Positions 27,021-44,294 of a stretch of 64,000 nt of DNA are shown piece after piece (position 1 is the first letter of the stretch; the number at the start of each line of letters is the position of its first letter). Under the pieces are notes generated by a model. The model was not told the DNA's origin. It did no database searches and saw nothing but the letters and a program-made list of their open reading frames with translations. Source of the DNA: Clostridiales bacterium UBA7568 (lineage in GTDB: Bacteria > Bacillota > Clostridia > Oscillospirales > CAG-272); assembly GCA_002479075.1 (NCBI GenBank), contig DLLG01000011.1:6331-70330 (forward strand), read 5' to 3'. The position numbers and the translations under genes were made by a program.

Positions 27021-27061
27021 GGAGAGGTATCGAAGTGGTCATAACGGGGCTGACTCGAAAT
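27021..27061 (+). pseudogene. 5' half of a tRNA-Ser(CGA) gene, truncated in the anticodon loop
   Basis: GGAGAGGTATCGAAGTGGTCATAACGGGGCTGACTCGAAAT is 38/41 identical to the 5' half of the intact tRNA at 27221. Homology stops after the anticodon loop and no pairing 3' strand follows. Confidence 0.85.
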
Positions 27062-27220
27062 TTTCCGAAGAGCTGTTAGTTCTGTCCGCCTGAAAACCTT
27101 GATTTTACTTAGGCTTCCAAATTTAAAATCGAATAATTTTTTGCTTTCTCTCCTGCTTTTCTCTCCAAAAGTTTTTTGAACGATTTTTGGTCGAAAAGAA
27201 AAGCGGATTGAAATATACAC

Positions 27221-27309
27221 GGAGACGTATCGAAGTGGTCATAACGGGGCGCACTCGAAATGCGTTTGCCCTAACGGGCACGTGAGTTCGAATCTCACCG
27301 TCTCCGCCA
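27221..27309 (+). tRNA. tRNA-Ser (anticodon CGA), class II with long variable arm and encoded CCA
   Basis: Hand-folded. Acceptor GGAGACG/CGTCTCC, anticodon stem GCGCA/TGCGT with loop CTCGAAA, variable arm GCCC-TAAC-GGGC, T arm GTGAG-TTCGAAT-CTCAC, discriminator G plus CCA. Confidence 0.9.
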
Positions 27310-27387
27310 TCGAAAAGCCAGTAACCATGCGGTGTTGCTGGCTTTTTCATTTTTTCTCAAAAAATAAATTTTACGCAATTTTCGGAT

Positions 27388-27420
27388 TTTAGGAGAGAAA
27401 ATCATCATTTCTCTCCTAAA
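27388..27420. terminator. 13-bp perfect inverted repeat at the integrase 3' end
   Basis: tttaggagagaaa-atcatca-tttctctcctaaa overlaps the int stop codon. Confidence 0.45.
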
Positions 27421-28613
27421 TCATTTGAAACCCAACGGCTTCCGAAATCGCCTCTTTCAGGCAAAATAAGTCCTGTTTCCATTGCCTGTGCCGAGGAGAT
27501 TTTGGAACTGTAATCCAGGTGAGCATAAATATTTGCCGTTGTTGTAAAATCGCTGTGACCAAGCCACTCTTGAATATGCTTTAGCGGTACGCCGTTAGCA
27601 AGAAGCAGTGAAGCACAGCTATGACGAAGGTCGTGAAATCGCATACGGCGCAAACCGTGCTGTTCCAAAAACTTCGGGAAATAAGAAGTTAGATAACCCG
27701 CTCGCATACGCTCGCCCATTTCATCTACAAACACAAAACCCTCATATTCATAATTGTAACAGTTGCCGCATATCTTCTTGTTCAATTCCTGCGCTTCCCT
27801 TACCTGCATAAAGTAGTCTCGAAAACTGCCGACAAGCGGTAAAGTACGCAAGCTTGATTTGGTCTTTGCCGATTGTTGCTCGATTTCCGTATACTTACCG
27901 TTTACGGAAATTGAAGTTACCGTTCGCTTAATCGAAATCGTGCCACGCTCAAAGTCTATGGCGTCCCATTTAAGCCCCAACACCTCGCCACGGCGAAAGC
28001 CGTAAAAAGCGGCTACAAGCACCGGCAGTTCTAGTTTTGTTCCTCTAAGCGCTTCAAACATTTTCTGCATTTCCTCTGCCGAAAGAAATACAGGCTGAAA
28101 ATCGTTTTTCTTCGGTCGGTCAACCTTATCAGCCACATTCTGCATCAGCATATCGGTTTTCACCGCATATTTGAGCGCCGAATGAATAACGGCGTGGTAG
28201 TGTATGACCGTGTTGGGTTTTACCTTTTTGAGCATCTCGGAATAAAACATTTGCAAATGCCTTGCTTCAAGCTCACGGAGTGTCAGCTTCTTCTTACGGA
28301 AATAAGGTTCGATAACGCTTTTTATAAGTCCTAAGTAAGAAGAATACGTCGCAATCGCCAGCCTTCCTTTGGCGATTTCCAACCACTCCAGAAGATAATC
28401 GGCAAACAACATATCGCTGCTTAACTCTCCGACTTCTTCGGGAACTTCAAATTCTGCCCGCAGTTTAGCAAGCTCGGCTTCCGCTTTTCGTTTGTTGCCC
28501 TTTTCGGGCAGTCCCAAGGAAATCCACTTTGTTTTTCGTTGCCCCTTGGCGTTTTTGTAATTCAGTACGGCATAGTAATTGCCGTTTTTAACCGATAAAT
28601 GTCCTGCTACCAT
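27405..28613 (-). CDS. Tyrosine-type site-specific integrase
   Basis: 402 aa with catalytic-domain motifs RFHDLRHSCASLLL and GHSDFTTTANIYAHL. ATG at 28613 is preceded by an AGGAGG RBS. Confidence 0.92.
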   Translation of the reverse strand: MVAGHLSVKNGNYYAVLNYKNAKGQRKTKWISLGLPEKGNKRKAEAELAKLRAEFEVPEEVGELSSDMLFADYLLEWLEIAKGRLAIATYSSYLGLIKSVIEPYFRKKKLTLRELEARHLQMFYSEMLKKVKPNTVIHYHAVIHSALKYAVKTDMLMQNVADKVDRPKKNDFQPVFLSAEEMQKMFEALRGTKLELPVLVAAFYGFRRGEVLGLKWDAIDFERGTISIKRTVTSISVNGKYTEIEQQSAKTKSSLRTLPLVGSFRDYFMQVREAQELNKKICGNCYNYEYEGFVFVDEMGERMRAGYLTSYFPKFLEQHGLRRMRFHDLRHSCASLLLANGVPLKHIQEWLGHSDFTTTANIYAHLDYSSKISSAQAMETGLILPERGDFGSRWVSNDLGEK

Positions 28614-28737
28614 TTTTAATTCCTCCTAAAATCTTAATTTTGCAGAGCAGAACTCCAAACCGACAGCATTATTATAGCATCGGTTTGGGGTTCTCTCCAT
28701 TCTGTGAATTGTTTTGCCGTATTCGTATCTGTACGAA

Positions 28738-29646
28738 TCAGCGAGCGTCTCGGTTTCGTTCTCTCTGCCGCTTTAACAGCTCCAAGCCTTTTATAATATC
28801 TCGGCGTATTTGCTCATCGGTGTAGCCCTGCGGAAAATACTTTTTAAAATCCTCACGCTTAAATTTTATCTGCTCCTGCTGATTCGGTTTTTCCTCCGAC
28901 ATCACCGCATAAATCATTTGGTTGTCCAGCATACCCTGCTGACTTAACTTTTTCAGCCGTATGCTTTGTGCGTGAGACGGTGTGCAGTCGTTCAGTTCCA
29001 TAGCGTCAAGCAGTATTCTCTGCTCTGACTTGTCTAAGTACGAAATTTCTACCGCAGGATTGAAAGCAATTTTGCCTTCGTCTACCATTGCAAGCAGTTC
29101 GGGGATTAAGTAGGTCAAACGGATATAACGCTGAATCTGTCTTCCGCTATCTACCGATTCATCAGCCATTTTTTCTCTTGACCACTTCTGGACAAGTTGT
29201 CCAGAAGCTACACCCTGATGTTTTATTGCTTCCAGTTTCATCTTATAGGCAAAGGCTTTTTCACTCGGCAAAATCGTCTCTCTTTGTAAATTTGCGTCTA
29301 CCATTGCGATAACTGCTTCATCATCGGACATCTCACGCACGATTACGGGCATTGTTTCAATTCCTAACACTCGACACGCTGCAAGCCTACGATGACCTGA
29401 GATAAGTTCGTAGCCACCGTCAGGCAAGGGTCTTGCAAGTGCCGGAGTGATTGCGCCTACCTTGCGTATGCTTTCAATCATTCGCTCCATTTCCTCATTG
29501 TTCTGCACTTTAAATGGATGATTTTTAAAGGGATGAAGTTCTGAAAGCGGAATGTTTTGAACACGCTCTAACTTTACATCGTCCCGCATTTCCTGCGTGG
29601 TGAATAAATCGTCCAGTTTAGGTAAAGTAAAATCTGATTTTCTCAT
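28738..29646 (-). CDS. ParB/Srx N-terminal-domain protein of the element backbone
   Basis: Frame of ORF 28738..29676. The second ATG at 29646 has the better RBS (AGAGAGGAAAA). The ParB box reads YELISGHRRLAACRVLG. Confidence 0.75.
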   Translation of the reverse strand: MRKSDFTLPKLDDLFTTQEMRDDVKLERVQNIPLSELHPFKNHPFKVQNNEEMERMIESIRKVGAITPALARPLPDGGYELISGHRRLAACRVLGIETMPVIVREMSDDEAVIAMVDANLQRETILPSEKAFAYKMKLEAIKHQGVASGQLVQKWSREKMADESVDSGRQIQRYIRLTYLIPELLAMVDEGKIAFNPAVEISYLDKSEQRILLDAMELNDCTPSHAQSIRLKKLSQQGMLDNQMIYAVMSEEKPNQQEQIKFKREDFKKYFPQGYTDEQIRRDIIKGLELLKRQRERNRDAR

Positions 29647-29666
29647 TGTTGTTTTCCTCTCTTTCG

Positions 29667-29909
29667 TTATTTCCATTTGAGCTCGCTTTCGGCGGGGCGT
29701 AAAAAGGTCGCCTCAATGTCCGCCTGAAATCGGTGCCACCGTTCCGCTTCTCGCCGCAGCATAGGCGCATCGACAAACCCCAGCGTATTCGCTTTCACCG
29801 CAAGCTGATTGATGTTGTTGCCGATGGTAGACAGCTTGCGCATTGCTTCATAGAAATTGCCGTCCGGTTTTTCTCTCGGCTCATACCCTCGAATCAGCAA
29901 ACGAATCAC
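29667..29909 (-). CDS. MobC-family relaxosome accessory protein (N-terminus uncertain)
   Basis: TIGNNINQLAVKAN motif. The same frame stays open upstream to about 29990 (KRIKKQFWLSSQEAAELKRKAELAGISETAV, RHH-like) without an ATG/GTG/TTG. The start is therefore non-canonical or the gene is damaged. Confidence 0.6.
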   Translation of the reverse strand: MIRLLIRGYEPREKPDGNFYEAMRKLSTIGNNINQLAVKANTLGFVDAPMLRREAERWHRFQADIEATFLRPAESELKWK

Positions 29910-30023
29910 CGCCGTTTCCGATATTCCGGCAAGCTCTGCTTTTCTTTTAAGCTCTGCCGCCTCTTGGGATGAGAGCCAAAACTGTTTCTTAATTCTTTTG
30001 TTAATAACCGTTCCTTTCCGAGA

Positions 30024-30108
30024 GAGGTTTTAGGAGACATCCTAACGAGTTTTTACTGTTTGGGAGTACAAACAGTCTGCTCGCTACGATAGCGCAGCCT
30101 AAAACCTC
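30024..30108. promoter_or_regulatory. Nested inverted repeats, oriT candidate
   Basis: GAGGTTTTAGG (30024-30034) pairs with CCTAAAACCTC (30098-30108). They enclose the hairpin CTGTTTG-n6-CAAACAG (30056-30075). The site lies between the two MobC/RHH genes. Confidence 0.35.
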
Positions 30109-30121
30109 CGCCCTGTTTTTA

Positions 30122-30382
30122 TTACTTCAGTAAGTCCTCTATCACGCTCAGTCGATAGAGGATTTCGCTTTTTTCAAGGGACTCCAAATCCTTTTTGAGC
30201 TGTCTTACCTGTCGAAAAGTCTTGTAGATTTTCTCATCGGTTGCGGCTTTTACGTTCTTTCCAAGTCCCAATCTTCTGAGATATTCCGACATGGATAGTC
30301 CGCAATACATTGCGCTTTCGCTGAGCTTTTCTTTCTCGGCGGGTGTTACTCTTACGTTGATTCCTTGTGTTTTACTTCTCAT
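30122..30382 (-). CDS. Ribbon-helix-helix (MobC/CopG-like) protein
   Basis: MRSKTQGINVRVTPAEKEKLSESAMYCGLSMSEYLRRLGLG is an RHH pattern. ATG at 30382 follows AAGGA. Confidence 0.6.
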   Translation of the reverse strand: MRSKTQGINVRVTPAEKEKLSESAMYCGLSMSEYLRRLGLGKNVKAATDEKIYKTFRQVRQLKKDLESLEKSEILYRLSVIEDLLK

Positions 30383-30438
30383 AAATATCAAATCCTTTCT
30401 TTTGTTTGTGACGACAATGACGGTTGTGACGGTGTTTT

Positions 30439-31464
30439 CTATATAGAGATCTCGCCGTCATTTCCGTCACCGCTGTCATTCATTTCAAGCCGAATCAGGC
30501 GGCTTGTCCCCGTGCGTTTGGTTCTGTATTCAATGCCCTGTGGCATCAAAACCTCTGCCGAAAACCTCGCCAGCAGCTTGGTTACCACGTTTGCCGTGGT
30601 TTCAGTTTCGTTCATTTCGGTAAGTAGCTGACTTGCTGTGCCTTGCCAAGTTCTGCGCAAGGCTATGAAGGAAACAAGACGAAAAAGAAAGTTGGGAATC
30701 TCTTCTCGGTGAAGATCTTCGGCGTTCTTTCGTTCCACAAGCTCCCATAAATGGGTTCCGTTATCGAACTTCAGGGTAAGCTCCTGATACTCTATATCTC
30801 GTCCCGTAGCAAGGAGCGTTCCCATCTCGCTTGAGCGACTGCGTTTCAAAATAAAACTCGTATCAGCAGCTCCCGTGATACCCGTTGAACCCGTAACCTC
30901 GTTGAATGGGTCGTTGGCATCCTTCATTTTGCGAACGTGATGAACGACCACCACCGCTATCCCGAACCTATCCGAAATGGTTTTTAGCGCCGTGATATCG
31001 TCGTAATCTCCTGCATACATTCCGCTTTTACCGATGGTGTTTCGAGAGTCACGAACCTTTTGAAAAGTATCGATAATCACAAGCTTTGTGTTCGGAAAGT
31101 CGGTTAGATAATCTTCAATCTGATGCTCTAAACCATTCCCGATCTGAAAACTCGTGGTAGCAATTCGAAGCTCGGCAGGCGCTTCATCGGTCAGCTGATA
31201 CAAGCGGTTTTGAATACGAATGTGGGTATCTTCCAAGCACAGATACAGCACGTCGCACTTGTGGGTTTCAAATTCCCACACGGGATTTCCTCTTGCCACC
31301 TGCATACCGAGCCACAGCATCAGCCAGCTTTTACCGATCTTACTTGCGCCCGATAATACGCTCAGTCCCTGCGGTATCAAGCCTTCCACAACGAACAGTG
31401 TCTTGCGGAGCGGCGTTGATAACAAGGTGTCCGCATCAACGGTTCTCAATTTTTCAACTTGCAT
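30439..31464 (-). CDS. RecA-fold AAA_25/RepA-like ATPase
   Basis: ATG at 31464 follows GAAGGAGG. Walker A reads SGASKIGKSW and Walker B reads KLVIIDTF; VVVVHHVRK is also present. Confidence 0.7.
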   Translation of the reverse strand: MQVEKLRTVDADTLLSTPLRKTLFVVEGLIPQGLSVLSGASKIGKSWLMLWLGMQVARGNPVWEFETHKCDVLYLCLEDTHIRIQNRLYQLTDEAPAELRIATTSFQIGNGLEHQIEDYLTDFPNTKLVIIDTFQKVRDSRNTIGKSGMYAGDYDDITALKTISDRFGIAVVVVHHVRKMKDANDPFNEVTGSTGITGAADTSFILKRSRSSEMGTLLATGRDIEYQELTLKFDNGTHLWELVERKNAEDLHREEIPNFLFRLVSFIALRRTWQGTASQLLTEMNETETTANVVTKLLARFSAEVLMPQGIEYRTKRTGTSRLIRLEMNDSGDGNDGEISI

Positions 31465-31684
31465 TTTTCTCACCTCCTTCCTCCATAACATAGTTGATGA
31501 CATTGACCTTCGGGATCTTAAAGGCATTTCCGATTTTGATGCCGGAGATATATCCGTCGTTGATAAGGTCGTATGCCAAGTGTCTGCTGATGCCCAACAT
31601 TTTCTGAAGCTGAGCCACGGTTACGATGTCCGGATAGTCCGGAAACATCATCTTGTAGAGTTCTCTTAACTCTGTTTTTCTCAT
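31454..31684 (-). CDS. Excisionase-family helix-turn-helix protein
   Basis: 76 aa with VTVAQLQKMLGISRHLAYDLINDGYISGIKIGNAFKIPK. RBS is GGAGG. Confidence 0.7.
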   Translation of the reverse strand: MRKTELRELYKMMFPDYPDIVTVAQLQKMLGISRHLAYDLINDGYISGIKIGNAFKIPKVNVINYVMEEGGEKNAS

Positions 31685-32351
31685 AATCTGTTACCTCCTT
31701 CTGAGAATGTTCAGCCACACGGTTTTCGTGGCTATGTAAAGAGCTCGGTATAAGGAGAGGCAGCCTTATGCCGACTCTTTCGCCGGTCTGCCTGAATGTC
31801 GTTCCTGCTCCGGAATCTCACCGCAACGTTTTGTTTTTCCTGGCACGCTCATATCGTGGCGATACTTTACCGAAAAACATATCTCATTCAGCCGGTCATT
31901 AAGTTGTCAAGGTTCACTGAAGGTTTTTTATCTCCTCAAGGAGTAGCCGGCGAGGTACGGGGTGAATATCCGAAGAAGAAAATTATTTTTCGCTCATTAC
32001 CCCGTACTAACCAATTGGCGAATTCTTTTGGAGTTTGGCAAAAAATTTTTTATAACCTCACTTTTAGTTGCTGACTTTTTGAGAAAATGGACAAATTGTT
32101 TTTTCTTTTTCGCTTGAAAACGGCGTGTTATCAGGGTTTTGTCCCTTCACTTATTCCGAAAGAGGTCGGCGTATGCACACCCATTTTTACGAAAAAATTC
32201 TTCGTGCGAAAAGAAAAAACAGCCGAAAACCCTTTATTTACGGGCATTTTTGGCTGAAAAAATATTTTGAAATTTTTTGAAATTCATAGAAAAACGGGTG
32301 AAAATCTGCTATAATTATGAAAAGGTCAACTTATGATATGACGGTGATGTT

Positions 32352-33728
32352 ATGATTTTAAAAAGAATACCTGACAAATTGAAAAAGGATATTGAGCAGT
32401 TTCATTCTTCTAATAGCGACTCGAATGAGATATGGCTTCTCTCGGCAGATTCGGGAATGGGCAAGACCTATGCGGCGTTATCTTACTGCGTCGAAAATAA
32501 GGATAGCCTTTACTTTTCCTTTCGGCATATCAGCGCTGAACTTGCTCGGAAAACCTTTGCGGAGCGTTATCCCGATGTATTCAGGGATTGTGCAACTTGG
32601 TCGGCATTCTTCGATTGCCTACAAGTCTTTGGCAAAAGAAAACGCCCAACCGTCTTTTTTGACGATGTGGGCGAACGAAATGATAAGAATGATTTTTATG
32701 CGGCATTAAAGAACTTTTCAGAAGTAAGCAACGGTTGCGGTGTGCTTGTAGTGTTAATCGGCAGACCTTGGGAACAGATTGAAATACCCTGCCAAACGCT
32801 CTATATAACGCCATATTCCACGCAAGAGATTGCCGAAACGCTGTCCGTAAGCGACAAGGAATCGGTAGACATATTTTGCCTGTCGGCGGGTATTACGGAA
32901 CTTTTATCTCTTTACGATACGAGCATTTCTTTTGAAGAAAATGTAAAAGCGTTGCTTTATATCAATTCCCCGTTTTATCGACTAATAAATGATAAGATGT
33001 GCGAATGTTTCCGAACGCCCGAAAGCTACAACACGCTGCTATATGCAATGGTGAACGGTTATAATCGCATCACCGAACTGTCGGCGTTTTCAGGTTATCC
33101 GAAAAACAAATGCGATAAGTACATTAAAACGCTGTGCGAATTCGGTCTTGTCCGTAAGGAACCCGAAAAGAACGGACACACAAAGTATTATCCGGCGAAC
33201 AGCTACATTGCCCTGTGGTATAAAACTCTGCTGACCGCTGTACCAAACTCAGACGGCTGTTTCGGTGAAGATGTTTATAATCGTTTCGTGAGATATTTTA
33301 ACGATGAGATACTTTCTACATTTTACAAAGAAATGTGCGCCTATTGGTTAGATAAAAATCTCAATTCCATCTCAACGGACTACATTGACACCAAAGATTT
33401 AAGCTATCGGAATGTCAAAGTCGGCGAGGTAGCCTTTGATTTTGCCTGCGAGAAAAAACGGGCGGTATATGCCTATTACGATACAATTCCCGGTGAAAAA
33501 CTTACGCAAAAGCTCTGGAAAGAGATTGAAAGAAGCACTACAAAAGACAGACCGTTTTACGAGAATGAATACGTTATCTGCACCGTAAACCGTGTTCCTG
33601 ATAGCTACTGGACATTGAGCAAGCATTATGATAACGTGCATATCGTCAAGCTTTCTTCTCTATTTGCTACCTATAACAAGGAATATAACCGCCGTATGCA
33701 CCCTCGGTTTGTTCCGTCGTTTGTCTGA
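32352..33728 (+). CDS. P-loop ATPase of the DUF234 / archaeal-ATPase type (ATPase + wHTH + C-terminal nuclease-like module)
   Basis: 458 aa with Walker A SADSGMGKTY and Walker B VFFDDVG. A central wHTH-like region reads ITELSAFSGYPKNKCDKYIKTLCEFGLV. The C-terminal VGEVAFDFACEKK resembles the DUF234 core. Confidence 0.55.
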   Translation: MILKRIPDKLKKDIEQFHSSNSDSNEIWLLSADSGMGKTYAALSYCVENKDSLYFSFRHISAELARKTFAERYPDVFRDCATWSAFFDCLQVFGKRKRPTVFFDDVGERNDKNDFYAALKNFSEVSNGCGVLVVLIGRPWEQIEIPCQTLYITPYSTQEIAETLSVSDKESVDIFCLSAGITELLSLYDTSISFEENVKALLYINSPFYRLINDKMCECFRTPESYNTLLYAMVNGYNRITELSAFSGYPKNKCDKYIKTLCEFGLVRKEPEKNGHTKYYPANSYIALWYKTLLTAVPNSDGCFGEDVYNRFVRYFNDEILSTFYKEMCAYWLDKNLNSISTDYIDTKDLSYRNVKVGEVAFDFACEKKRAVYAYYDTIPGEKLTQKLWKEIERSTTKDRPFYENEYVICTVNRVPDSYWTLSKHYDNVHIVKLSSLFATYNKEYNRRMHPRFVPSFV

Positions 33729-33840
33729 GTCTTAATATAATTCTCAAAGCCTTCTCCCAATTTTTTTGGAAAAGGGCTTTTCCTTTGCCGTGCAATTTAT
33801 AACTTTTTCGTTTCAATCCCGAATAAACCCCTATTAAACC

Positions 33841-33869
33841 TTGAAAAATCCTAAGAATTGTGTTATACT
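33841..33869 (+). promoter_or_regulatory. Promoter of the HTH-fic pair
   Basis: TTGAAA (33841-33846), 17-nt spacer, TATACT (33864-33869) with a TGt extended -10. Confidence 0.55.
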
Positions 33870-33913
33870 TTATGATGTATAATTGTATTTTCGTGAAAAC
33901 GGAGGATTTCACC

Positions 33914-34102
33914 ATGGATAACAACCTTGAACGCTGGTATTCAATGAAAGAGATAATGGAATATTTGGGCGTTAGCCGTGATACAGTTCTCGACTGGATT
34001 GAACGTCGCAATATGCCCGCCGCTAAGATAGGCAGACTGTGGAAATTCAAGGTCAGCGAAGTCGATGCTTGGATGAAATCCGGCGTTGCGGCTGATAAGT
34101 AA
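33914..34102 (+). CDS. Excisionase/MerR-like helix-turn-helix protein
   Basis: ATG at 33914 follows ACGGAGGA. It reads MDNNLERWYSMKEIMEYLGVSRDTVLDWIERRNMPAAKIGRLWKFKVSEVDAWM. Confidence 0.7.
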   Translation: MDNNLERWYSMKEIMEYLGVSRDTVLDWIERRNMPAAKIGRLWKFKVSEVDAWMKSGVAADK

Positions 34103-34122
34103 TTGTAATTTGGAGGTGCGAT

Positions 34123-34728
34123 ATGGCACTTGAAAATAAATTAGGTCTTACAAATTCTGCCGATCTTGCCCGTGAAGAAGAACGCATCAGCAAGAAAAAG
34201 GCTGCGGAGCTTTTTGAAAAAGGCATTTTAGCCAATCTTCCTGTCGGTAAGTTTTCTTCATTGCAGGCAATCCATAAATATCTCTTTGAGGATATTTACG
34301 ACTTTGCAGGCAAACTCAGAACAGTCAATATTGCAAAAGGAAATTTCCGTTTTGCACCGCTTATGTACTTGCAAGCGGCACTTGAAAACATTGATAAAAT
34401 GCCGCAGTCTACCTTTGACGAGATAGTAGAAAAGTATGTTGAGATGAACATCGCCCACCCTTTCCGTGAGGGCAACGGACGAAGCACTCGCATTTGGCTC
34501 GACCATATTTTGAAAACCGAAATCGGCAAAGTAGTGGACTGGAGCAAGCTTGATAAAGAAGATTACTTGCTTGCAATGGAGCGTAGCCCGATAAAAGATA
34601 TTGAAATCAAACACCTTTTGAAAAACGCACTTACCGATGAAATAGACAGCCGTGAGGTCTATATGAAAGGTATCGACCACAGCTACTATTACGAAGGATA
34701 CACAACCTTCAAGACGGAAGAATTGTAA
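34123..34728 (+). CDS. fic: Fic-family protein (AMPylase type), class-III-like with a C-terminal inhibitory motif
   Basis: 201 aa with active-site HPFREGNGRSTR (HxFx[DE]GNGRxxR). The C-terminal SYYYEG matches the (S/T)xxxE(G/N) auto-inhibition motif. Confidence 0.88.
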   Translation: MALENKLGLTNSADLAREEERISKKKAAELFEKGILANLPVGKFSSLQAIHKYLFEDIYDFAGKLRTVNIAKGNFRFAPLMYLQAALENIDKMPQSTFDEIVEKYVEMNIAHPFREGNGRSTRIWLDHILKTEIGKVVDWSKLDKEDYLLAMERSPIKDIEIKHLLKNALTDEIDSREVYMKGIDHSYYYEGYTTFKTEEL

Positions 34729-34732
34729 AATC

Positions 34733-34779
34733 CCAAAGTGTCAACTATGGGATTCCAAAGTGCCAAATTGACACTTTGG
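34733..34779. promoter_or_regulatory. 12-bp perfect inverted repeat upstream of the methylase/restriction array
   Basis: CCAAAGTGTCAA (34733-34744) pairs with TTGACACTTTGG (34768-34779). A third half-site-like copy, ttCCAAAGTGcCAA, lies in the loop. The right arm supplies a TTGACA -35-like hexamer. Confidence 0.45.
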
Positions 34780-36255: not shown

Positions 36256-37444
36256 TTTGTGCGGAAATAAAGGCGAATGGTCAGAAATATATATTTTTCT
36301 TAAACTTATGAGCGACGGAAAAGTATATGCCGCTGATAAAAACATGAATCGCTTAACAAATGTTTTTCTCAATATTATTAAAATCATACGTGAGGAATAC
36401 AAAAATCAAAAATATGAATATTACACAGGCCCTGTCGTTAAAATCTTCTTGAATGAAACTGAAGTAGGACCAGATGTAAATATAACCGATTTTCAGACGG
36501 CAAGAGATCAACTTTGGAATGTGCTGAAAAATGCTACTCGTGGAAACGGTATTACTTGTGATACTGTCGAGACATTCCTGAGTTCAATCTATGTTACAAA
36601 ATTAAAAGCGCCTGCGGCACAACAAAATGAATTTTTTGGTGGTACACAAGATATAACCATGCAAGTTCAAGATTACAGAAATGGTATTGCATCTGTTATT
36701 GGATTTTCGTGCAAATCCGACTTTACCGCAAAATCCACTTTGTTTAACGCAAGCAAAGATAACACAAATTTCACATTCGAAATCGTTGGTAATATTGATG
36801 ACACCTTGATGAATCGATTCAACAATACATATACCATACGAAACAAGAAGAATAAAGAAACCGGGTTAATGGAGCCACATGAGGTTATAGCAATTCGGGA
36901 ACGCATACAACTTTTAAAAGCTGCTGAATGTGATATTGTTTACAGCAATATGCCCGTAAACAGTGCAAAACGGAATTTAATACTTTCAGGCGGTAACGAA
37001 ATGCCGTTGATAGTCGCTAACATGCTTAAAGCCTATTACTTTGAGGGAGAAGGTCAAGCGGCAAATTCATCTATTGAATATGCATTAGATTATGTTGTTC
37101 GCAATAATTCTGCAGAATATGAATTTGACGATACAGCGAGCATGTACAGAAGAAAGATCGGAACACTTTTGTATGATATGTTTACCGGAATGCGTTTAGC
37201 TAAGGCTTGGGATGGCAGAAGCAGTGTAAATGGTGGATATATCGTTGCAAAAGACGATGGCGATGTTGTTGCGTATCACTCTTGCATGGCTGACGAGTTT
37301 AAAGATTTTCTTATTCACCAATTAGGATTTGAATCTCCTTCTGCATCAAGACATCAATATATACAGATATACAAAGATAATGGAAAGTATTATTTGAAAT
37401 TAAATCTTCAGGTAAGATTTAAGGGCGTTTCTGACGAAGAATAA
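36248..37444 (+). CDS. Type II restriction endonuclease, HpaII-like (tentative)
   Basis: 398 aa with an 8-nt overlap with the upstream MTase. The N-terminal NKGEWSEIYIFLKLMSDGKVYAAD resembles, from memory, the HpaII-family N-terminus. It sits in the R position of a Vsr-M-R arrangement. Confidence 0.55.
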   Translation: MPDLCGNKGEWSEIYIFLKLMSDGKVYAADKNMNRLTNVFLNIIKIIREEYKNQKYEYYTGPVVKIFLNETEVGPDVNITDFQTARDQLWNVLKNATRGNGITCDTVETFLSSIYVTKLKAPAAQQNEFFGGTQDITMQVQDYRNGIASVIGFSCKSDFTAKSTLFNASKDNTNFTFEIVGNIDDTLMNRFNNTYTIRNKKNKETGLMEPHEVIAIRERIQLLKAAECDIVYSNMPVNSAKRNLILSGGNEMPLIVANMLKAYYFEGEGQAANSSIEYALDYVVRNNSAEYEFDDTASMYRRKIGTLLYDMFTGMRLAKAWDGRSSVNGGYIVAKDDGDVVAYHSCMADEFKDFLIHQLGFESPSASRHQYIQIYKDNGKYYLKLNLQVRFKGVSDEE

Positions 37445-37471
37445 CTTGACTAAAATTGAAAGGGAAATCCC

Positions 37472-38410
37472 ATGAAAGTTGGTAGTTTATTCTCAGGCAT
37501 AGGCGGGATTGACTTAGGGTTCGCTCAAGCCGGATTTCAAATTTGCTGGGCTAACGAAATTGATCCGGATGCTTGCAAAACCTATAGACTCAACTTTCCG
37601 TCAACTCGTTTGATTGAGGGAGACATAAAAGATATTGAGCCCCGCTCATTAGAACCAGTTGATGTGATAACCGCCGGATTTCCATGCCAATCGTTTTCCG
37701 TTTGTGGAAATCAAAAAGGTTTTAATGATAAACGAGGGAATTTATTCTTTGAAATAATGAGAATAATTGATGTGCTCAATCCAGTAATTGTTTTCTTAGA
37801 AAATGTCGCTAACCTTACGGAACATGACAACGGAAGAACTTTTAATGTTATTCATAACGAGTTAGTGTGCAGAGATTATTCTATCAGATACGTTATAGCC
37901 GATGCTTGCGATTATGGTATCCCTCAACATCGCACAAGAACATATATAGTTGCATTTAAATCGCAAGAAATGTGTGATAACTTTAAATTCCCTGACAAAT
38001 GCATACTTGAAAAGCGGATATTTGGTATTATCGATAAAACCGCAAAAGTTGAAGATTCTTATTATTTAAAAAAAGATTCTAATCAGTATCGAAAACTAAC
38101 TGAATTTATCAAGGATGATAAGCAAATATATCGTTTTTCGGATTATGGTATTCAGTCAAGTAAAGACGGAATATCTTTCACGTTAAAAGCGAATATGGGC
38201 ACTTGGAGAGAACGGGTTCCGTATATAAAAGACAATTATGGCATTAGGAAGATTACCCCTTACGAATGCTTAGCATTACAAGGGTTTTCTCAAGGATATC
38301 ATTTTCCCAAAATCCCGATATCAAGTGCATATAAACAATGCGGTAATAGCGTTGTTGTGCCAGTAGTTAAAGGAATAGCCGAGCAGATAGCGATAGTAAT
38401 TGCACCATAG
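37472..38410 (+). CDS. DNA (cytosine-5)-methyltransferase, copy 2
   Basis: Motif I SLFSGIGG, IV GFPCQSFS, VI ENVANL, VIII QHRTRTYIVAF, X QCGNSVVVPV. The target-recognition region differs from copy 1. Confidence 0.93.
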   Translation: MKVGSLFSGIGGIDLGFAQAGFQICWANEIDPDACKTYRLNFPSTRLIEGDIKDIEPRSLEPVDVITAGFPCQSFSVCGNQKGFNDKRGNLFFEIMRIIDVLNPVIVFLENVANLTEHDNGRTFNVIHNELVCRDYSIRYVIADACDYGIPQHRTRTYIVAFKSQEMCDNFKFPDKCILEKRIFGIIDKTAKVEDSYYLKKDSNQYRKLTEFIKDDKQIYRFSDYGIQSSKDGISFTLKANMGTWRERVPYIKDNYGIRKITPYECLALQGFSQGYHFPKIPISSAYKQCGNSVVVPVVKGIAEQIAIVIAP

Positions 38411-38433
38411 TATTAAATCAAAGGAGCATAAAA

Positions 38434-39837
38434 ATGGAGCGAGAAAATATTTCAATTGATCTATTATTACTTTCCGATGGAAATCCCAGATTAGATCCAT
38501 CGTTGGGAGAAGACGAAGCTATTTTTAATATGGTTAATGACCAAAACGATAAGTTGTTTGAGCTCGCCTCTGATATTGTAAAACACGGACTGAATCCATT
38601 AGATACAATAGGTGTTTATCCATCTGAAACATATCATGGTTTTTATGAAGTTGGCGAAGGTAACCGACGTATATGTGCATTAAAACTATTGATTTCCCCT
38701 GGGCGCATTCAACATATTAATGGCAGTTTGTATTCAAAATTCCTGTCATTATCAAAGACATACTCCGCACCTAACTTGATAGAAGTGGGAGTATTCAATG
38801 ATGAAATCTCTATGCGACATTGGATGGAAATTCGTCATATGGGTGAGCAAAGTGGTAAAGGATTATCAAAGTGGAATTCTGTACAAAAAGCTCGCTTTAA
38901 TCGAATGCAAACGGGTTCTGATGCACTGCTTGATTTTTGGGACTGGATGATTGCGAATAGTATCCTTTCTGAAGCAGAAATCTTAAGTGTCACAAAAACC
39001 AATTGGCAACGTATTCTTCGTGAAAAGTATTTTCCATTTTTAAAAATTCAATATGACGGAAATTATTCTGTTTTACCTAAAGACATAGATGTTTTCACAT
39101 ATCGAATCAGAGAAGTCCAAAAAAAGTTGGATGGGCAAACAGTGGCTATAGTGTATGACCAAATAAGGATTGAAGAATTTTTTAATTCTATTTCAAATGT
39201 GCTATACGGAAAGTCCTATCAAGAAGTAGTAAATGAAGAGTCGGAACAAATCGATATTCTTCCTCCTTTGCAAGAAACTAACATTAGTAACGAAACGGAA
39301 CAAGTTGGTGACATTTCCACATCTCAAGGCAGCTCTGTTAGTGGTTCAACTATTGAAGAAAACGATGATAGCACCCTTTCTCAAACAATATCAAATACTG
39401 TACAAACCATCGGAAGAGATGTTTTTAATGGTTGTGGCACAATTATTCCATATGGATATCCTATTCGCACTGACAATATGCGATTAAATAAAATCATCAA
39501 TGAACTTAAAAGAATAAATGCTGATGATTATCCAAATGCTTGTGGAACTCTTTTGAGAACACTTTTTGAACTTTCGGCAAAGGTATATTTAGAAAAGCAG
39601 GATGGACAAGATCATACTGAAACCGAATTTTCACCAGCTATTAAACAAGCAGCTAATCTATTACGTCAGCAACGATGTATCGATAACAGTCAACATTCGG
39701 CCATTAATAGCGATATCGACAATTTAAGAAAGATTTTTAATGGTTATATGCATAATACTGAATCTTACCCAAGCAGCGAAGCACTTAAAAATTTCTTTAA
39801 ATGCCACCGTGTGTTTATTCAAGAGTGTTTAAAGTAA
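38434..39837 (+). CDS. Uncharacterised protein: N-terminal ParB/Srx-fold domain, Ser/Thr-rich linker, C-terminal helical domain
   Basis: 467 aa. The ParB-type signatures are DGNPRL and YEVGEGNRRICALKLL. A low-complexity linker spans about aa 270-320. The C-terminal domain contains LRKIFNGYMH, a loose R-x7-H that is only HEPN-reminiscent. Confidence 0.6.
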   Translation: MERENISIDLLLLSDGNPRLDPSLGEDEAIFNMVNDQNDKLFELASDIVKHGLNPLDTIGVYPSETYHGFYEVGEGNRRICALKLLISPGRIQHINGSLYSKFLSLSKTYSAPNLIEVGVFNDEISMRHWMEIRHMGEQSGKGLSKWNSVQKARFNRMQTGSDALLDFWDWMIANSILSEAEILSVTKTNWQRILREKYFPFLKIQYDGNYSVLPKDIDVFTYRIREVQKKLDGQTVAIVYDQIRIEEFFNSISNVLYGKSYQEVVNEESEQIDILPPLQETNISNETEQVGDISTSQGSSVSGSTIEENDDSTLSQTISNTVQTIGRDVFNGCGTIIPYGYPIRTDNMRLNKIINELKRINADDYPNACGTLLRTLFELSAKVYLEKQDGQDHTETEFSPAIKQAANLLRQQRCIDNSQHSAINSDIDNLRKIFNGYMHNTESYPSSEALKNFFKCHRVFIQECLK

Positions 39838-39852
39838 CAGGAAGGTGATATT

Positions 39853-41502
39853 GTGATTAAGAATATAAATATTATTCAATATCGAAAACTCAAGGATTTG
39901 ACTTTAGGTTTTACTAAAAATATTAATGCAATTTCAGGCACTAATGGTACTTGCAAAACATCATTATTGCATCTGTTAGGTAATTCTTTGCAAGCTCCAA
40001 CGAAAACATGCAGTTGGATAACCGATGAGAAATGTTTGCCTATAATCAAAGCTGTAAATAATGTGACGAATCCAAAGGTTGAAAGTCTTACTCGTGGAGA
40101 TCAAACATATAATGATCCCGCTCACGGAGTAAAAGGTCCTTTATTTTCAGTTGATTATTATGGTGCAGAATCCTTAAACTTCAGACGTCATAATTCTACG
40201 CAAATGACTCGTTATGCCGTAAAACCAAAATATCAACCGGGAACAAAAGACACATTACCATATTGCCCTGTAATTTATTTAGGACTTTCAAGATTAGTGC
40301 CTTTTGGTGAGTTTCAGAATGATGATGCATTATCTAACATAAAGAAGAAACTGCCTCAATCATATCAAGATGAAATTGCCGAACTGTACAAAAAATTCAC
40401 CAATTATGAAATCTTATTTAATGCCACTAAACAGATGGGCGACATAAAGGTAAGAAGTGAATTTTCAAGCAATGTAGAAGGTATCGACTCTAATACAATA
40501 TCTGCTGGTGAGGACAACTTGAGCATTATACTCACAGCACTTATTTCACTAAAATACTATTATGAATCTATATCTTCTGCTAATGACGTAGAGAGTGTTC
40601 TCTTGATTGACGAAATGGATGCAACATTACATCCCGCCTTCCAAATTAAACTTTTGAATTTATTCCGTGAAATGTCTGAAGCATATAAGATGCAGGTGGT
40701 ATTCACAACACATAGTATGTCTCTTTTGGAAGAGATGCTTGCAAAAAAGGACAATGTACTATATTTAATTGATAATGTAACTTCAGTTTTCCAAATGGAA
40801 GATCCTGATATCTACAAAATCAAAATGCATTTACAATCCTTAACGCAAGAAGACATCTATGAAGATAAAGTAATACCTTTATTTACCGAAGATGATGAGG
40901 CACGCTGCTTGCTTGAATTACTTTTTGATTACTATCAGAAAACATATTCTGAGTTCCGAAATGTTAGCGGGCTGTTCCACAAGGTTCTCACTAACATTAG
41001 TGCAGAAAACTTAACAGGAATATTCACAGACAGTAAACTTTTACATACTACAATGCGGTCTATTTGTGTTTTGGATGGCGACCACAAGTCTGATATAACA
41101 AACTTCATTGTGGCTCTTCCCGGAAAGGCCGCTCCCGAAGCGGTATTGTTAAATTATATTGAGAAGCTTTATGATGATGACGATCCTTTTTGGAGAGATA
41201 GAACCATAGTTGACAAAGGTTATACAAAAAACTACTATATTACTAATATAAAAAATATAGTTGATAATTTTGAAGCAGATCTTGTTAGATTGCACGAAAA
41301 CGGCGAGTCTGCCAAAGGAAAACGCCGAGCGTTCAATAAAAAACTTTTTAATGATAACCAAAACTTTTTCAAGTTAGTATTCAAACATTGGATTCATAAT
41401 CCCATAAACAAATCCGAAGTTGAGCGCTTCTATAACGAACTTCATATCTTATTCCTGAAAGTAGCGCCTTATCACGAAATTAATCCAAAGGAATGGGCAT
41501 AA
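39853..41502 (+). CDS. OLD-family-like protein: ABC-type ATPase fused to a Toprim-like C-terminus
   Basis: 549 aa with a GTG start after AGGAAGGTG. Walker A ISGTNGTCKTSLL, signature-like ISAGEDNLS, Walker B VLLIDEMDATLHP and H-loop FTTHS are present. C-terminal LFTEDDEA and CVLDGDHKSD resemble the Toprim E and DxD motifs. Confidence 0.6.
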   Translation: MIKNINIIQYRKLKDLTLGFTKNINAISGTNGTCKTSLLHLLGNSLQAPTKTCSWITDEKCLPIIKAVNNVTNPKVESLTRGDQTYNDPAHGVKGPLFSVDYYGAESLNFRRHNSTQMTRYAVKPKYQPGTKDTLPYCPVIYLGLSRLVPFGEFQNDDALSNIKKKLPQSYQDEIAELYKKFTNYEILFNATKQMGDIKVRSEFSSNVEGIDSNTISAGEDNLSIILTALISLKYYYESISSANDVESVLLIDEMDATLHPAFQIKLLNLFREMSEAYKMQVVFTTHSMSLLEEMLAKKDNVLYLIDNVTSVFQMEDPDIYKIKMHLQSLTQEDIYEDKVIPLFTEDDEARCLLELLFDYYQKTYSEFRNVSGLFHKVLTNISAENLTGIFTDSKLLHTTMRSICVLDGDHKSDITNFIVALPGKAAPEAVLLNYIEKLYDDDDPFWRDRTIVDKGYTKNYYITNIKNIVDNFEADLVRLHENGESAKGKRRAFNKKLFNDNQNFFKLVFKHWIHNPINKSEVERFYNELHILFLKVAPYHEINPKEWA

Positions 41503-41505
41503 CAC

Positions 41506-42384
41506 ATGAAAGGAGGAAATAATTTGCCACTAACACCATCACCGCTTAGATATCCTGGCGGGAAAACTAAACTGTATAATTATGTTAAATCAATTATAGA
41601 AGCTAATAATTTGATTGGAGAGACATATATCGAGCCTTTTGCCGGTGGATCGGGGTTGGCTTTAAAACTATTATTGAATAACGATGTGAAGAGAATTGTA
41701 ATCAATGATTTGGATCCAGCGATATATGCGTTTTGGTATTGTGTGCTTAATCATCCTGATGAAATGTGCGATTTTGTTACTACAGTTTCGTTGACGGTTG
41801 AAGAATGGGATAATCAACACAGTATCTACGTCAATCAGCAAAATCACACTCAATTAGAATTAGCTAAAGCAACATTGTTTTTGAACAGAACCAATGTGTC
41901 TGGTGTTATTACTGGCGGTGTGATTGGAAAGCGAGATCAAACCGGTAAGTACAAAATAGACGCTCGTTTTAACAGAGAAGAACTTGCAAGGAAAATACGA
42001 ACAATATCTGCATTATCAAATAAAATTGATTTGTATAATTTAGATGCTGTGACTTTTTTGCAAAATGAACTGCACCATTATTACAAAGCCTTTATCAACT
42101 TTGATCCTCCATATGTGGTCAAGGGTGGTCAATTATATAAGAACTCCTTTACAGAGGAGGATCACCGATCGCTTAGAAACCAAATTGCCAAGTGCAAAAG
42201 AAAATGGATAGTCACGTATGATATGTGTGATCTAGTTGCGAAACTTTATTCTGGCTTTAGAAGAAGTACTGTAGATATTTACTATAGTGCAAATGGAGCA
42301 AAAAAAGCTAAGGAATATATCTTCTTTAGTAATAATTTAATATTGCCCGAAGACACAACTTTTATAAAAGACAATGAGAATTGA
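41506..42384 (+). CDS. Dam-like N6-adenine DNA methyltransferase (D12 class)
   Basis: LRYPGGKTKL, EPFAGGSGLAL, NDLDP and the catalytic NFDPPY. TTG at 41524, after AAAGGAGG, may be the true start. The gap to the upstream gene is only 4 nt. Confidence 0.85.
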   Translation: MKGGNNLPLTPSPLRYPGGKTKLYNYVKSIIEANNLIGETYIEPFAGGSGLALKLLLNNDVKRIVINDLDPAIYAFWYCVLNHPDEMCDFVTTVSLTVEEWDNQHSIYVNQQNHTQLELAKATLFLNRTNVSGVITGGVIGKRDQTGKYKIDARFNREELARKIRTISALSNKIDLYNLDAVTFLQNELHHYYKAFINFDPPYVVKGGQLYKNSFTEEDHRSLRNQIAKCKRKWIVTYDMCDLVAKLYSGFRRSTVDIYYSANGAKKAKEYIFFSNNLILPEDTTFIKDNEN

Positions 42385-42401
42385 CGATTCCACAGACAAA
42401 T

Positions 42402-42432
42402 ACAGGCACGAGAGAATGACTCCCGTGCCTGT
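42402..42432. terminator. Hairpin terminator between the convergent dam-like and tnpV-side genes
   Basis: acaggcacg (42402-42410) pairs with cgtgcctgt (42424-42432). Confidence 0.5.
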
Positions 42433-42434
42433 TA

Positions 42435-42581
42435 TCATTTTATGTATTTGATTATAAGTTCATCGACGCCGTCGGTGTATTTGCCTTGGGAAATTAGCTT
42501 ATTGCGGTATTCAAGCAAGCATTGAAGGATGAAATGGTGTTCTACGTCGGTTAGGCGAAGGTAATATTTCCGTTTTCTCAT
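42435..42581 (-). CDS. Small protein (48 aa) translationally coupled to tnpV
   Basis: Below the track size cutoff, found manually: MRKRKYYLRLTDVEHHFILQCLLEYRNKLISQGKYTDGVDELIIKYIK. It has an ATGA overlap with the tnpV stop. Confidence 0.5.
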   Translation of the reverse strand: MRKRKYYLRLTDVEHHFILQCLLEYRNKLISQGKYTDGVDELIIKYIK

Positions 42582-42949
42582 ACGTACACCACATCGGAAT
42601 AGACAGTTTCAATCACACGCTCTCGGACGTTATTCATTTTCTGCACCCACTTCATTTGGTCGGTGGCTTTGAGGTGTTCGGTAATGTCTTCCTTTTCGGC
42701 GTGTTCTTTTACGAGCCGAGAAAAGAGGCTCTGCGCTTGTTCTTCGATATCTGCAAGGTGGGAATGGAGCTTGCCGGAAGTGAGCAGATTATAATACAAA
42801 ATTTTGCGGTGGTGCTTTATGTAGTTTAGTCTGCGCTGCCCCCATACGCCGATGGGGCGTTCTTCTTCAGTGGGTGGAAGCAGATTCGGCAAGCGGTAAT
42901 CGCCTTGCATAGTGTAAGTTCCGCCTTGTTGTTCAAAGATTGATTTCAT
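42578..42949 (-). CDS. tnpV: TnpV-like transposon-associated protein
   Basis: 123 aa. MKSIFEQQGGTYTMQGDYRLPNLLPP...IGVWGQRRLNYIKHHRKILYYNLLTSGKLHSHLADIEEQA matches my recollection of the Tn4451 TnpV family. Confidence 0.65.
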   Translation of the reverse strand: MKSIFEQQGGTYTMQGDYRLPNLLPPTEEERPIGVWGQRRLNYIKHHRKILYYNLLTSGKLHSHLADIEEQAQSLFSRLVKEHAEKEDITEHLKATDQMKWVQKMNNVRERVIETVYSDVVYV

Positions 42950-42962
42950 ATGTAATCCTCCT

Positions 42963-43265
42963 TTACGATTCCTTCAGCAAATCCTCAAACGGTGTTTCGG
43001 TGGAGATGAACGCATCGTAGGCAAAGTTCGCCCCTAAACGGAATCCCATAATGAAACTATCAAGATTGGATTCGCCGTTTACAACACCCCAGGCGTTCAC
43101 ATAGTCGAGGAACCATTTCTTCTGTTCATTGTGCAGAGCGTTGGTTAGCAAATCTTCGTTCTTCATAAGAATTTCCATTTGCTTCTTCACTGCTTTGTTC
43201 TGTTTGGTACTGCGTGCCTGCGGATCGATGTTGCCGTAATAAAACTCTTCAATAAATCGTGCCAT
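42963..43265 (-). CDS. Hypothetical protein (100 aa) of clostridial mobile-element type
   Basis: ATG at 43265 follows AAGGGGGG and gives MARFIEEFYYGNIDPQARSTKQNK... The upstream part of the track ORF looks spurious. Confidence 0.5.
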   Translation of the reverse strand: MARFIEEFYYGNIDPQARSTKQNKAVKKQMEILMKNEDLLTNALHNEQKKWFLDYVNAWGVVNGESNLDSFIMGFRLGANFAYDAFISTETPFEDLLKES

Positions 43266-43382
43266 TGTTTGCACCCCCCTTACGGCTATAGTGTAGCAAA
43301 AAACTTTTTGGAGTGCGATTGTGCAAATTTTGAAATCGCACATAGAAAAAGCACCCGCCCGAAGGCAGGTGCTCAAAAGCTG

Positions 43383-43964
43383 TTATTTACTCCGTTCTTT
43401 CTGCATAAGGTGGTGGAACTCATTTATCGTCTGAATATGCCAAGAAGTTTTACGGATGATACTGCGAAAATATGGGGAGCAGAAAAACTCGATTAGGAAT
43501 ACTTTGGGAATGTAATAGGTGTTGTGCTTTATAAAGTGCTTAAGCCGTCCCTTGCCGCACCAGTTGGTAACGGTGGACTTTGCATATCCGGTTAGCTTAA
43601 CGACCTCCTGAGAGGTAATAACGTCCTTATAGTCGGATAAAAGATCGGCATAATATTCGTGGAGCAATTTCAACGCTTCTTCTGACATCTCAACAGGAAG
43701 TGTTATTTTATGATTTCCCTTATACCATCCTTTAGGAGCAGAATAGTATTCGGGAAACTTGCCCTTTCTTTCTAAGTATTTCTGTACGTCTGCTTTCTTG
43801 ATTTTATAGCATCGGGTTTTCTTGCCCGAATACTCACATGGGACTGCTCCGCTTTTAAGCAGATACAGAGCAGTGGACTTGCTGATGTGGCAAATACGAT
43901 AGAATTGCTCTTTCGTAATGACTTCGGGAACCTCGTTCCAATTGATCGGTCTGTGATATTTCAT
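43383..43964 (-). CDS. Helix-turn-helix (excisionase-type, duplicated) DNA-binding protein
   Basis: 193 aa with two HTH-like segments: ITKEQFYRICHISKSTALYLLKSGAVPC and ITSQEVVKLTGYAKSTVTNWCGKGRLKH. Confidence 0.6.
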   Translation of the reverse strand: MKYHRPINWNEVPEVITKEQFYRICHISKSTALYLLKSGAVPCEYSGKKTRCYKIKKADVQKYLERKGKFPEYYSAPKGWYKGNHKITLPVEMSEEALKLLHEYYADLLSDYKDVITSQEVVKLTGYAKSTVTNWCGKGRLKHFIKHNTYYIPKVFLIEFFCSPYFRSIIRKTSWHIQTINEFHHLMQKERSK

Positions 43965-44236
43965 AGCAATACGCCTTTCAAACTAATTTGTCGGATTGAA
44001 GTTCGTCCTGTGTGTATTGCCATTGGGTTTTATTTTGTGTCTGTTCTCTCCTGAGTTCTCTCCAAAACGCTCTCAGTTCTCTCCTAAATGCGATTTTTAA
44101 TTCGATTCGAACTTCCTCAGCGAAATGGAGTTTTAGAAGAGCGACACCCGAAAAAGCCTTATTTAATGCGTGTTTCGGCGAATATCAAACTGCCTGAAAA
44201 AACCTGCAAAAATCAGCGAGTGTCCAAAGGATTAAA

Positions 44237-44294
44237 GACTCGAAATCAGTTTGCGCAAAAGCGCACAAGGGTTCGAATCCCTTCCTCTCAGCCA
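44237..44294 (+). pseudogene. 3' half of the split tRNA-Ser(CGA) gene (attR side)
   Basis: GACTCGAAAT-CAGT-TTGCGCAAAAGCGCAC-AAGGGTTCGAATCCCTT-CCTCTCA-G-CCA. Its anticodon-stem and acceptor 3' strands pair with the 5' half at 27021-27061, apart from a G1:A72 mismatch. Confidence 0.8.

Follow-up and report, generated by a model that had tools for sequence, protein, structure and literature searches.

A probably mobilizable, non-phage element of gut Clostridia that appears to split a host tRNA-Ser(CGA) gene and to bring its own replacement

In tRNA-dependent lysogeny, which has been shown experimentally for phages of Mycobacterium and Gordonia, the phage encodes a tyrosine integrase whose attB lies within a host tRNA gene, the common core is so short (8-17 bp) that neither attL nor attR restores the tRNA, and the phage carries a tRNA with the isotype and anticodon of the gene it disrupts; lysogens of such phages, examples of which are Fionnbharth, LeBron and Gaia, need this cognate tRNA to survive (Guerrero-Bustamante and Hatfull, mBio 2024; PMC10865867). 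The same paper raises the idea of an anti-defence role for phage tRNAs, and it names one candidate from beyond the actinobacteria, the L. johnsonii prophage Lj965 (Ventura et al. 2003/2004), a single Firmicutes case that, as cited there, fails to rebuild its tRNA and encodes the cognate one. Classical tRNA islands and prophages differ in that a matching tRNA segment lies beside the core, and integration leaves one intact gene together with one displaced fragment that marks the end of the element (the Islander concept, PMC4383910). A further group for comparison is that of the integrative and mobilizable elements (IMEs) of Faecalibacterium, described in the main text of PMC12084326 as small elements with an integrase, mobC-type genes and defence cargo and without a type IV secretion system (T4SS), which use the 3' end of tRNA-Ser as an integration site and integrate side by side or into one another as tandems and 'matryoshkas'; that main text makes no mention of a replacement tRNA. 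Here we analyse a 64-kb stretch of a contig (DLLG01000011.1) of Clostridiales bacterium UBA7568, referred to below as the window, in which all coordinates are positions (L-numbers are the locus labels of relatives). We conclude that, with high probability, a non-phage and probably mobilizable element of 17,185 bp (27062-44246) has split the host tRNA-Ser(CGA) gene downstream of lepA-hemW and carries a complete replacement tRNA of its own.

A previous reading of the window, made from its letters without database searches (the sequence-only reading), had proposed that two of three tRNA-Ser pieces were once a single gene, and the raw sequence does contain all three, at 27021-27061, 27221-27309 and 44237-44294 on the forward strand. 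The first, on the attL side, is the 5' half of a host tRNA-Ser(CGA) that begins 72 nt after hemW, as it does at a syntenic empty site described below, and stops in the anticodon loop with the core sequence GACTCGAAAT (27052-27061, +); the third opens with the same 10 bp at attR (44237-44246, +) and continues as the 3' half of the gene (44247-44294, +). This direct repeat on both flanks of the element covers tRNA positions 30-39, which places the split in the anticodon loop as had been proposed, and the 9-mer ACTCGAAAT has three copies in the 64 kb, one per tRNA piece and none besides. When 27021-27061 is joined in silico to 44247-44294 the resulting 89 nt are called as tRNA-Ser(cga) by ARAGORN, with six of seven acceptor pairs and all five pairs of the anticodon stem; the sole defect is a G1·A72 mismatch, due to an A at 44290, to which the sequence-only reading had already drawn attention. 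At neither junction is a tRNA called by ARAGORN or Rfam, and the DNA that flanks the core inside the element is not tRNA-like, hence the host gene, as had been claimed, is rebuilt on neither side. Nor does the 3' half behave as a generic repeat within the window, where it does not recur and where neither its T-arm motif nor the core is found anywhere else. The two outer pieces once formed a single host tRNA-Ser(CGA) gene: the join is called as a tRNA, the halves are mutually compensatory, and intact counterparts exist in relatives.

These counterparts come from a scan of one genome per GTDB species with a pattern that takes both anticodon-stem types, which returned at least 119 stretches; among the matches listed the CTGA/TCAG stem occurs 90 times and the CGCA/TGCG stem 38 times, and both are ordinary chromosomal tRNA-Ser(CGA) alleles in Clostridia. 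The uninterrupted form of the split gene is present in L021, where 87 of the 89 positions agree with the join (Rfam 54.0 bits) and the differences consist solely of one variable-loop base and C72. It is also present, in syntenic position, in L029, a Clostridia metagenome-assembled genome in which lepA (88% identity) and hemW (63%) are followed by an uninterrupted gene that agrees with the join at 85 of 89 positions (54.3 bits); what stands after hemW at this empty site is the allele of the two halves instead of that of the complete tRNA at 27221. Position 1 pairs with position 72 in every full-length intact gene of this stem type among the matches listed. Relatives in which HemW is 84-85% identical have the same perfect promoter and the same tRNA start directly after hemW, and were found only on contigs broken inside the tRNA D-arm. 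With L029 and L021, these relatives show that the host gene natively begins with the 5' half and ends with the piece at attR. Exact look-ups of HemW and of the open reading frame (ORF) to the right of attR, which might have led to closer empty sites, returned just the same clone carrying the element. The succession of hemW and tRNA-Ser(CGA) on one strand is seen in the window (25810-27061) and in the close relative L029, and a distant Clostridia genome, L018 (HemW 38% identical), has a tRNA-Ser(CGA) on the same strand ~1.1 kb downstream of hemW; this neighbourhood looks conserved.

The tRNA-Ser(CGA) borne by the element (27221-27309, +) is the sole tRNA that ARAGORN finds in the window (Rfam tRNA 52.1 bits), and it is complete, with G73, an encoded CCA, all seven acceptor pairs and all five anticodon-stem pairs. 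That a whole second allele rides inside the element beside int is borne out, since this tRNA starts 160 bp inside the left end, is co-oriented with the host promoter and gene, and is convergent with the integrase gene. Integrase relatives of 73-87% identity, lying in unrelated host contexts, align with the window from the base after ACTCGAAAT through the spacer, the tRNA, its terminator and int, which fixes the left boundary of the element at the core and assigns the complete tRNA to the element. Upstream of the split gene the host tRNA promoter TTGACA-17-TATAAT (26962-26990, +) matches the consensus at 12 of 12 positions and has an extended -10 (TG before the -10), and after integration it faces the 5' half, the left arm or spacer of the element (P' arm; 27062-27220, +) and then the element tRNA. 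No consensus promoter or terminator was found in the spacer between host promoter and element tRNA, and no consensus promoter reads inward from the right end of the element; just 3' of the tRNA there is an intrinsic-terminator-like hairpin with a T run (27312-27347, +), the hairpin of which is kept in relatives. Given the perfect promoter, the signal-free spacer and the terminator after the tRNA, the integrated element probably borrows the promoter of the host gene. Transcription would then cross both the orphan 5' half and the spacer to reach the element tRNA, which would take over UCG decoding, and integration itself would switch on the replacement. As UCG makes up 22% of the Ser codons in the host ORFs of the window, the carried tRNA is likely to matter.

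This layout is the norm of a family and not an accident of one locus, and other Ser and Leu tRNAs are treated alike. A search with an alignment of five integrases (A1) led to 80 metagenome and 80 IMG/VR loci, 67 of which had an adjacent tRNA and enough flank to be classed. In 52 of the 67 a complete tRNA convergent with int is accompanied by a displaced 5' half whose anticodon is the same, the nearest such half lying ~140-185 nt upstream of the tRNA in nearly all 52 and farther away in a few stacked loci; in six the core is preceded by non-tRNA DNA, and in the remaining nine no core was found. The anticodons of the 52 loci are Ser-CGA (33), Leu-CAA (16), Leu-TAA (2) and Ser-TGA (1), to which Ser-GCT (L182) and Ser-GGA (L173), found by alignment, are to be added, giving at least 54 loci and six anticodons, and the carried tRNA always matches the anticodon of the split gene. 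The same layout is found in five GTDB genomes, among them that of an isolate, Brotocaccenecus cirricatena (L023), whose orphan host half (GGAGATGTACCCAAGTGG...) belongs to a tRNA-Ser very unlike the carried one. The right ends of the relatives lay beyond the 10-kb flanks of int and were reached instead from the HTH_17 gene of the right end; a search with the single HTH_17 protein gave nothing and one with an alignment (A2) gave matches, among them two independent attR junctions (L380 and L384) in which the right end is followed by the core and the 3' half of a tRNA-Ser(CGA), without a 5' half. More remote are the integrases, 33% identical, of ~90-kb phage-like contigs in IMG/VR (L243-L262), which end just after a convergent tRNA-Asn(GTT) in what, from short flanks, look like classical prophage boundaries.

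What the carried tRNA is for could be read differently, namely that it serves mainly as an anti-nuclease device or decoy against tRNA-targeting defences, or as a codon supplement, while another tRNA-Ser reads UCG and the split is tolerated. The cargo of the element is wholly defence-related, which suits such a role, as does the idea raised for phage tRNAs (PMC10865867). The agreement of anticodons in 54 loci favours replacement, however, because it is predicted by replacement and not by codon supplementation; UCG is rarer in element ORFs than in host ORFs (12% versus 22% of Ser codons), and the carried tRNAs resemble normal host alleles found in other Clostridia. We therefore consider a decoy or supplement unlikely as the main role.

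The organisation of the attachment site also bears on how the locus arose. Junctions resembling attP, in which the TnpV/HTH_17 right end is followed by the core, the spacer, the complete tRNA and int, are found in L148, L159, L161, L220/L300 and L377, and have a tRNA half on neither side of the core; therefore the gene is restored at neither junction. Of the motif TTCTCTCC the window has 14 copies where 2.06 would be expected, and eight of them are at the element ends or upstream of int. Two direct tandem copies (TTTCTCTCC) lie in the spacer (27145-27153 and 27158-27166, +), an inverted pair (TTTAGGAGAGAAA / TTTCTCTCCTAAA; 27388-27420), kept in close relatives, lies at the 3' end of int after the tRNA terminator, a further single copy is found upstream of int, and the right or P arm (44040-44091, +), 150-200 bp left of the attR core, has three direct copies of GTTCTCTCC at 44044, 44056 and 44077. 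Such a layout is the pattern expected of arm-type integrase sites, and it would put the tRNA gene inside the P' arm of attP. A crossover in the anticodon loop, as here, reportedly characterises the anticodon-loop sublocation class of Williams 2002.

Had integration been of the classical kind, the complete tRNA would be the host gene or an attL hybrid, the element would run from it to the 3' half, and the 5' half would be a stray older fragment. An integrase gene adjoining an intact tRNA is what classical islands have, some members of the clade look classical, and other element families do duplicate the 3' part of the same tRNA: in L085 (121-372) and L122 a complete tRNA-Ser(CGA) is followed ~230 nt on by a duplicated 3' part from the D-loop (ACATAACGGGG...), which looks like classical duplication by another element family aiming at this tRNA. 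At the present locus, however, the 3' half pairs with the 5' half and not with the complete tRNA; the chimeras that combine the 5' half with the 3' part of the complete tRNA, or the 5' part of the latter with the 3' half, form three of five anticodon-stem pairs and neither is called as a tRNA by ARAGORN, and the complete tRNA and the 3' half have nothing in common beyond the 9-bp loop core. In addition the 160-bp spacer is homologous, from the core exactly, to the spacers of relatives in unrelated hosts, and the 5' half stands at its native place after hemW behind its native promoter. Contradicted by the pairing, by the spacer homology and by the place of the 5' half, classical integration at this locus is very improbable and was rejected.

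Independent assemblies, comprising two ENA contigs and Logan fragments, show 100% identity to the window wherever they overlap it, and since one independent contig crosses both junctions and another the left junction, the locus is not a one-off misassembly. A chimeric contig joined at shared tRNA sequence from different organisms, for which the frequent breaking of short-read contigs of the locus in shared D-arm sequence might be adduced, is hardly credible in the face of these long identical contigs, the mutual compensation of the host halves and the recurrence of the architecture in dozens of unrelated contigs and an isolate genome, and was likewise rejected. The Logan short-read contigs of the locus (L003, L004 and L371-L375) all stop inside the tRNA D-arm GTATCGAAGTGGTCATAACGG; because this D-arm is common to many tRNA-Ser copies, short-read metagenomes would systematically fragment such loci.

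Several points do weigh against the conclusion that a mobilizable element has split the host tRNA-Ser(CGA) gene and replaced it. For the window element neither an attP circle nor a restored attB was found, nor was a strain of its host species that lacks it; all copies retrieved represent one clone, and its exact attP and right-end patterns are absent from IMG/VR. Among the element ORFs scanned no relaxase was recognised, nor was a T4SS gene, and no oriT was identified; in view of the missing relaxase we infer, rather than observe, that the element is mobilizable. Five of the nine family members without a core (L154, L157, L196, L181 and L205; integrase identity 43-58%) have a host-type promoter directly before the tRNA that adjoins int, and no displaced 5' half; they look like cases of classical rebuilding, or of elements whose repeated 5' parts have recombined and thereby removed the spacer. 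Replacement is thus common in the clade and not universal, and both modes coexist. Finally, read-through from the host promoter is predicted from consensus scans, and a tRNA-Ser(UGA) might read UCG.

The sequence-only reading had further called the element addictive should its tRNA-Ser(CGA) be single-copy, and this is too strong, because precise excision would restore the host gene. Dependence would arise only against imprecise loss, against loss of the element tRNA, or after the split host gene decays. A mismatch between positions 1 and 72 marks the bacterial initiator tRNA and disfavours EF-Tu binding, and with its G1·A72 mismatch a host gene restored by excision might be impaired. The A72 substitution, one base in one clone, hints at decay of the split gene.

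When the locus is set beside tRNA-dependent lysogeny, four of the five structural features of that system are seen: an element-encoded tyrosine integrase, an attB inside a host tRNA gene, a short core (here 10 bp) that leaves the tRNA unrebuilt, and a carried tRNA with the isotype and anticodon of the disrupted gene. Further likenesses are that in phage Gaia a tRNA-Leu(CAA) likewise lies downstream of int, and that rebuilding and replacing members are mixed within one integrase family of these phages (PMC10865867). The fifth is lacking, since the carrier is not a temperate phage: the window element has ParB/MobC/NikA/TnpV-type genes and defence cargo, and no structural, lysis or repressor genes were found in it. 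The hosts also differ, a gut Clostridia bacterium here and actinobacteria there. The targets surveyed here are tRNAs with a long variable arm (Ser and Leu), cut in the anticodon loop; the carried tRNA is part of an attP arm, has the orientation of the host promoter and is usually separated from the core by 140-185 bp, and the elements have inserted into each other's carried tRNAs. The sixth feature, a carried tRNA needed for the survival of integrants in a host whose own tRNA is essential and single-copy, concerns a requirement that experiments have established for the phages; here it is suggested indirectly, by the share of UCG among the Ser codons of host ORFs (22%) and by the conservation of the layout across the family. 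The window element thus appears to work like tRNA-dependent lysogeny, yet is no case of lysogeny.

With classical islands and prophages the locus shares the tyrosine integrase, the tRNA target, the position of int beside the attachment site and a displaced fragment marking the end of the element (PMC4383910). The hybrid intact gene that classical islands have at one junction is lacking, given that the hybrids are not tRNAs and the attP-like junctions of relatives have no tRNA half; instead there are two orphan halves and a separate, complete, element-borne copy. It had been suggested that the strategy departs from the usual rebuilding with a 3' segment, and this holds, but it is not unprecedented, having been published as tRNA-dependent lysogeny (PMC10865867). 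The principle is already known from phages; what appears to be new is the type of carrier, the phylum, the breadth of the family, a tRNA placed downstream of the host promoter, and nesting via carried tRNAs. In the open-access full texts searched there was no report of the replacement strategy in non-phage integrative elements or in Clostridia, and an earlier report may exist elsewhere.

The nesting is apparent from several loci. In L161 and L220 a spacer of the element type and a junction of right end and core precede the orphan 5' half, L200, L199, L376 and L378 have stacks of two or three orphan 5' halves, and in L379, L385 and L386 the 3' half of a tRNA, behind which lies the terminator or int of another element, directly adjoins the right end and core of a foreign one. 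From the stacked halves and the foreign right ends at carried tRNAs it follows that incoming elements split the tRNAs carried by residents. The Faecalibacterium IMEs, which lack a T4SS, resemble the window element, in which no T4SS gene was recognised, in small size, integrase, mobC-type genes, defence cargo and gut Clostridia as hosts, but as far as the main text of PMC12084326 goes, nesting specifically via the tRNA that each element carries sets the present family apart. The tRNA is moreover exchanged between backbones, as near-identical backbones have unlike cassettes: between the window, L134/L135/L214 and L136/L141 the integrases are 86-87% identical and spacers and terminators are conserved, whilst the tRNA-Ser(CGA) cassettes differ (GGAGACG/CGCA in the window, GGAGCGA/CTGA in L134/L135/L214, and another D-arm type in L136). 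A wider reading, which we put forward tentatively and hold to be somewhat less than an even chance, is that in a large clade of gut Clostridia elements splitting a tRNA gene and bringing a tRNA of one's own is the standard way of integrating, across at least six Ser and Leu tRNAs; that the carried tRNA acts as a portable landing site, giving rise to nested stacks; that cassettes are exchanged; and that orphan halves decay, so that a core translation gene moves permanently to mobile DNA and the host becomes dependent on it.

Judging from its gene content, the element is a non-phage, integrative defence island that is probably mobilizable. Its tyrosine integrase (402 aa; 27405-28613, -) is at the left end and has matches to Phage_integrase (8e-27), to SAM-like N-terminal domains and to the phrog_1 integrase (4.5e-70); the columns invariant in alignment A1 include R207/R208, K250, H327, R330, H353 and Y363, with a spacing that would be expected of the catalytic set. 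No close integrase was found in cultured phages or plasmids, and the best match, of 58% identity, is in unverified faecal scaffolds. Next to int is a backbone module (28738-31684), common to close integrase relatives and encoded on the reverse strand, which consists of a ParB-like protein (28738-29676), MobC (29667-29909), a NikA/MbpA-like ribbon-helix-helix protein that is relaxosome accessory-like (30122-30391), an AAA_25 helicase-like ATPase (30439-31527) and a small excisionase-type HTH_17 protein (31454-31684). A 458-aa ORF (32352-33728, +) follows, with no family match except a weak one to a phage replication-initiator family. The right-end module (42578-43964, all -) consists of TnpV (42578-42949), DUF6809 (42963-43376) and a double-HTH_17 excisionase-like protein (43383-43964), and it adjoins the core likewise in L159, L161, L300 and L380-L386. 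With int and three HTH_17 excisionase-type genes the element has an integration and excision module of its own, and among the ORFs scanned with Pfam, PHROGs and NCBIfam none was recognised as a capsid, tail, terminase, lysis or repressor gene. Excision would use the HTH_17 excisionase-like proteins and restore the host gene, and for transfer the element would rely on its MobC/NikA-type mobilisation genes and on a helper element.

Between the two modules is the cargo block (33860-42384, +), in which family scans find restriction and defence genes throughout. These are, in order, an HTH_17 gene with a Fic gene (PDC-S04), a set of Vsr, m5C methylase and HpaII-type endonuclease, a second m5C methylase, PD-Lambda-5 A, an AAA_15 ATPase and PD-Lambda-5 B, the last a Dam-like methylase. 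The presence of the ATPase between PD-Lambda-5 A and B, with the extra m5C methylase ahead (37472-42384), is unlike the plain two-gene PD-Lambda-5 system, and the ATPase has weak, partial matches to the PtuA, GajA and AriA models.

Immediately to the right of attR is a block of low G+C content (44443-47277; 0.33-0.36, versus ~0.48 in host DNA), perhaps what is left of an earlier island that used this tRNA site. Its ORFs (428, 124, 127 and 145 aa) have no Pfam match, the 428-aa ORF has no NCBIfam, PHROGs or PADLOC match either, and no further core or tRNA fragment was found within the block. Beyond it lies a fluoride riboswitch (Rfam RF01734, 45.6 bits; 47369-47443, +), just upstream of a gene of the Na_H_Exchanger family at about 47490-48677 (mapped from L005).

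The finding takes the mechanism beyond actinobacteriophages, into non-viral elements, another phylum and the gut microbiome of humans and animals, in which it is apparently common. Island finders that expect an intact tRNA and a displaced 3' fragment would misplace the boundaries of such elements and list the carried tRNA among the host genes. In combination with a short core and a cognate tRNA, an integrase might also make a self-selecting integration cassette for genetically intractable Clostridia, a use that Hatfull's group has proposed for mycobacteria. For the elements themselves, a carried tRNA that doubles as an attachment site offers a simple explanation for the nested and tandem arrays found at tRNA loci, and if split host genes decay, there would be a route by which essential tRNA genes pass onto elements that are then hard to lose.

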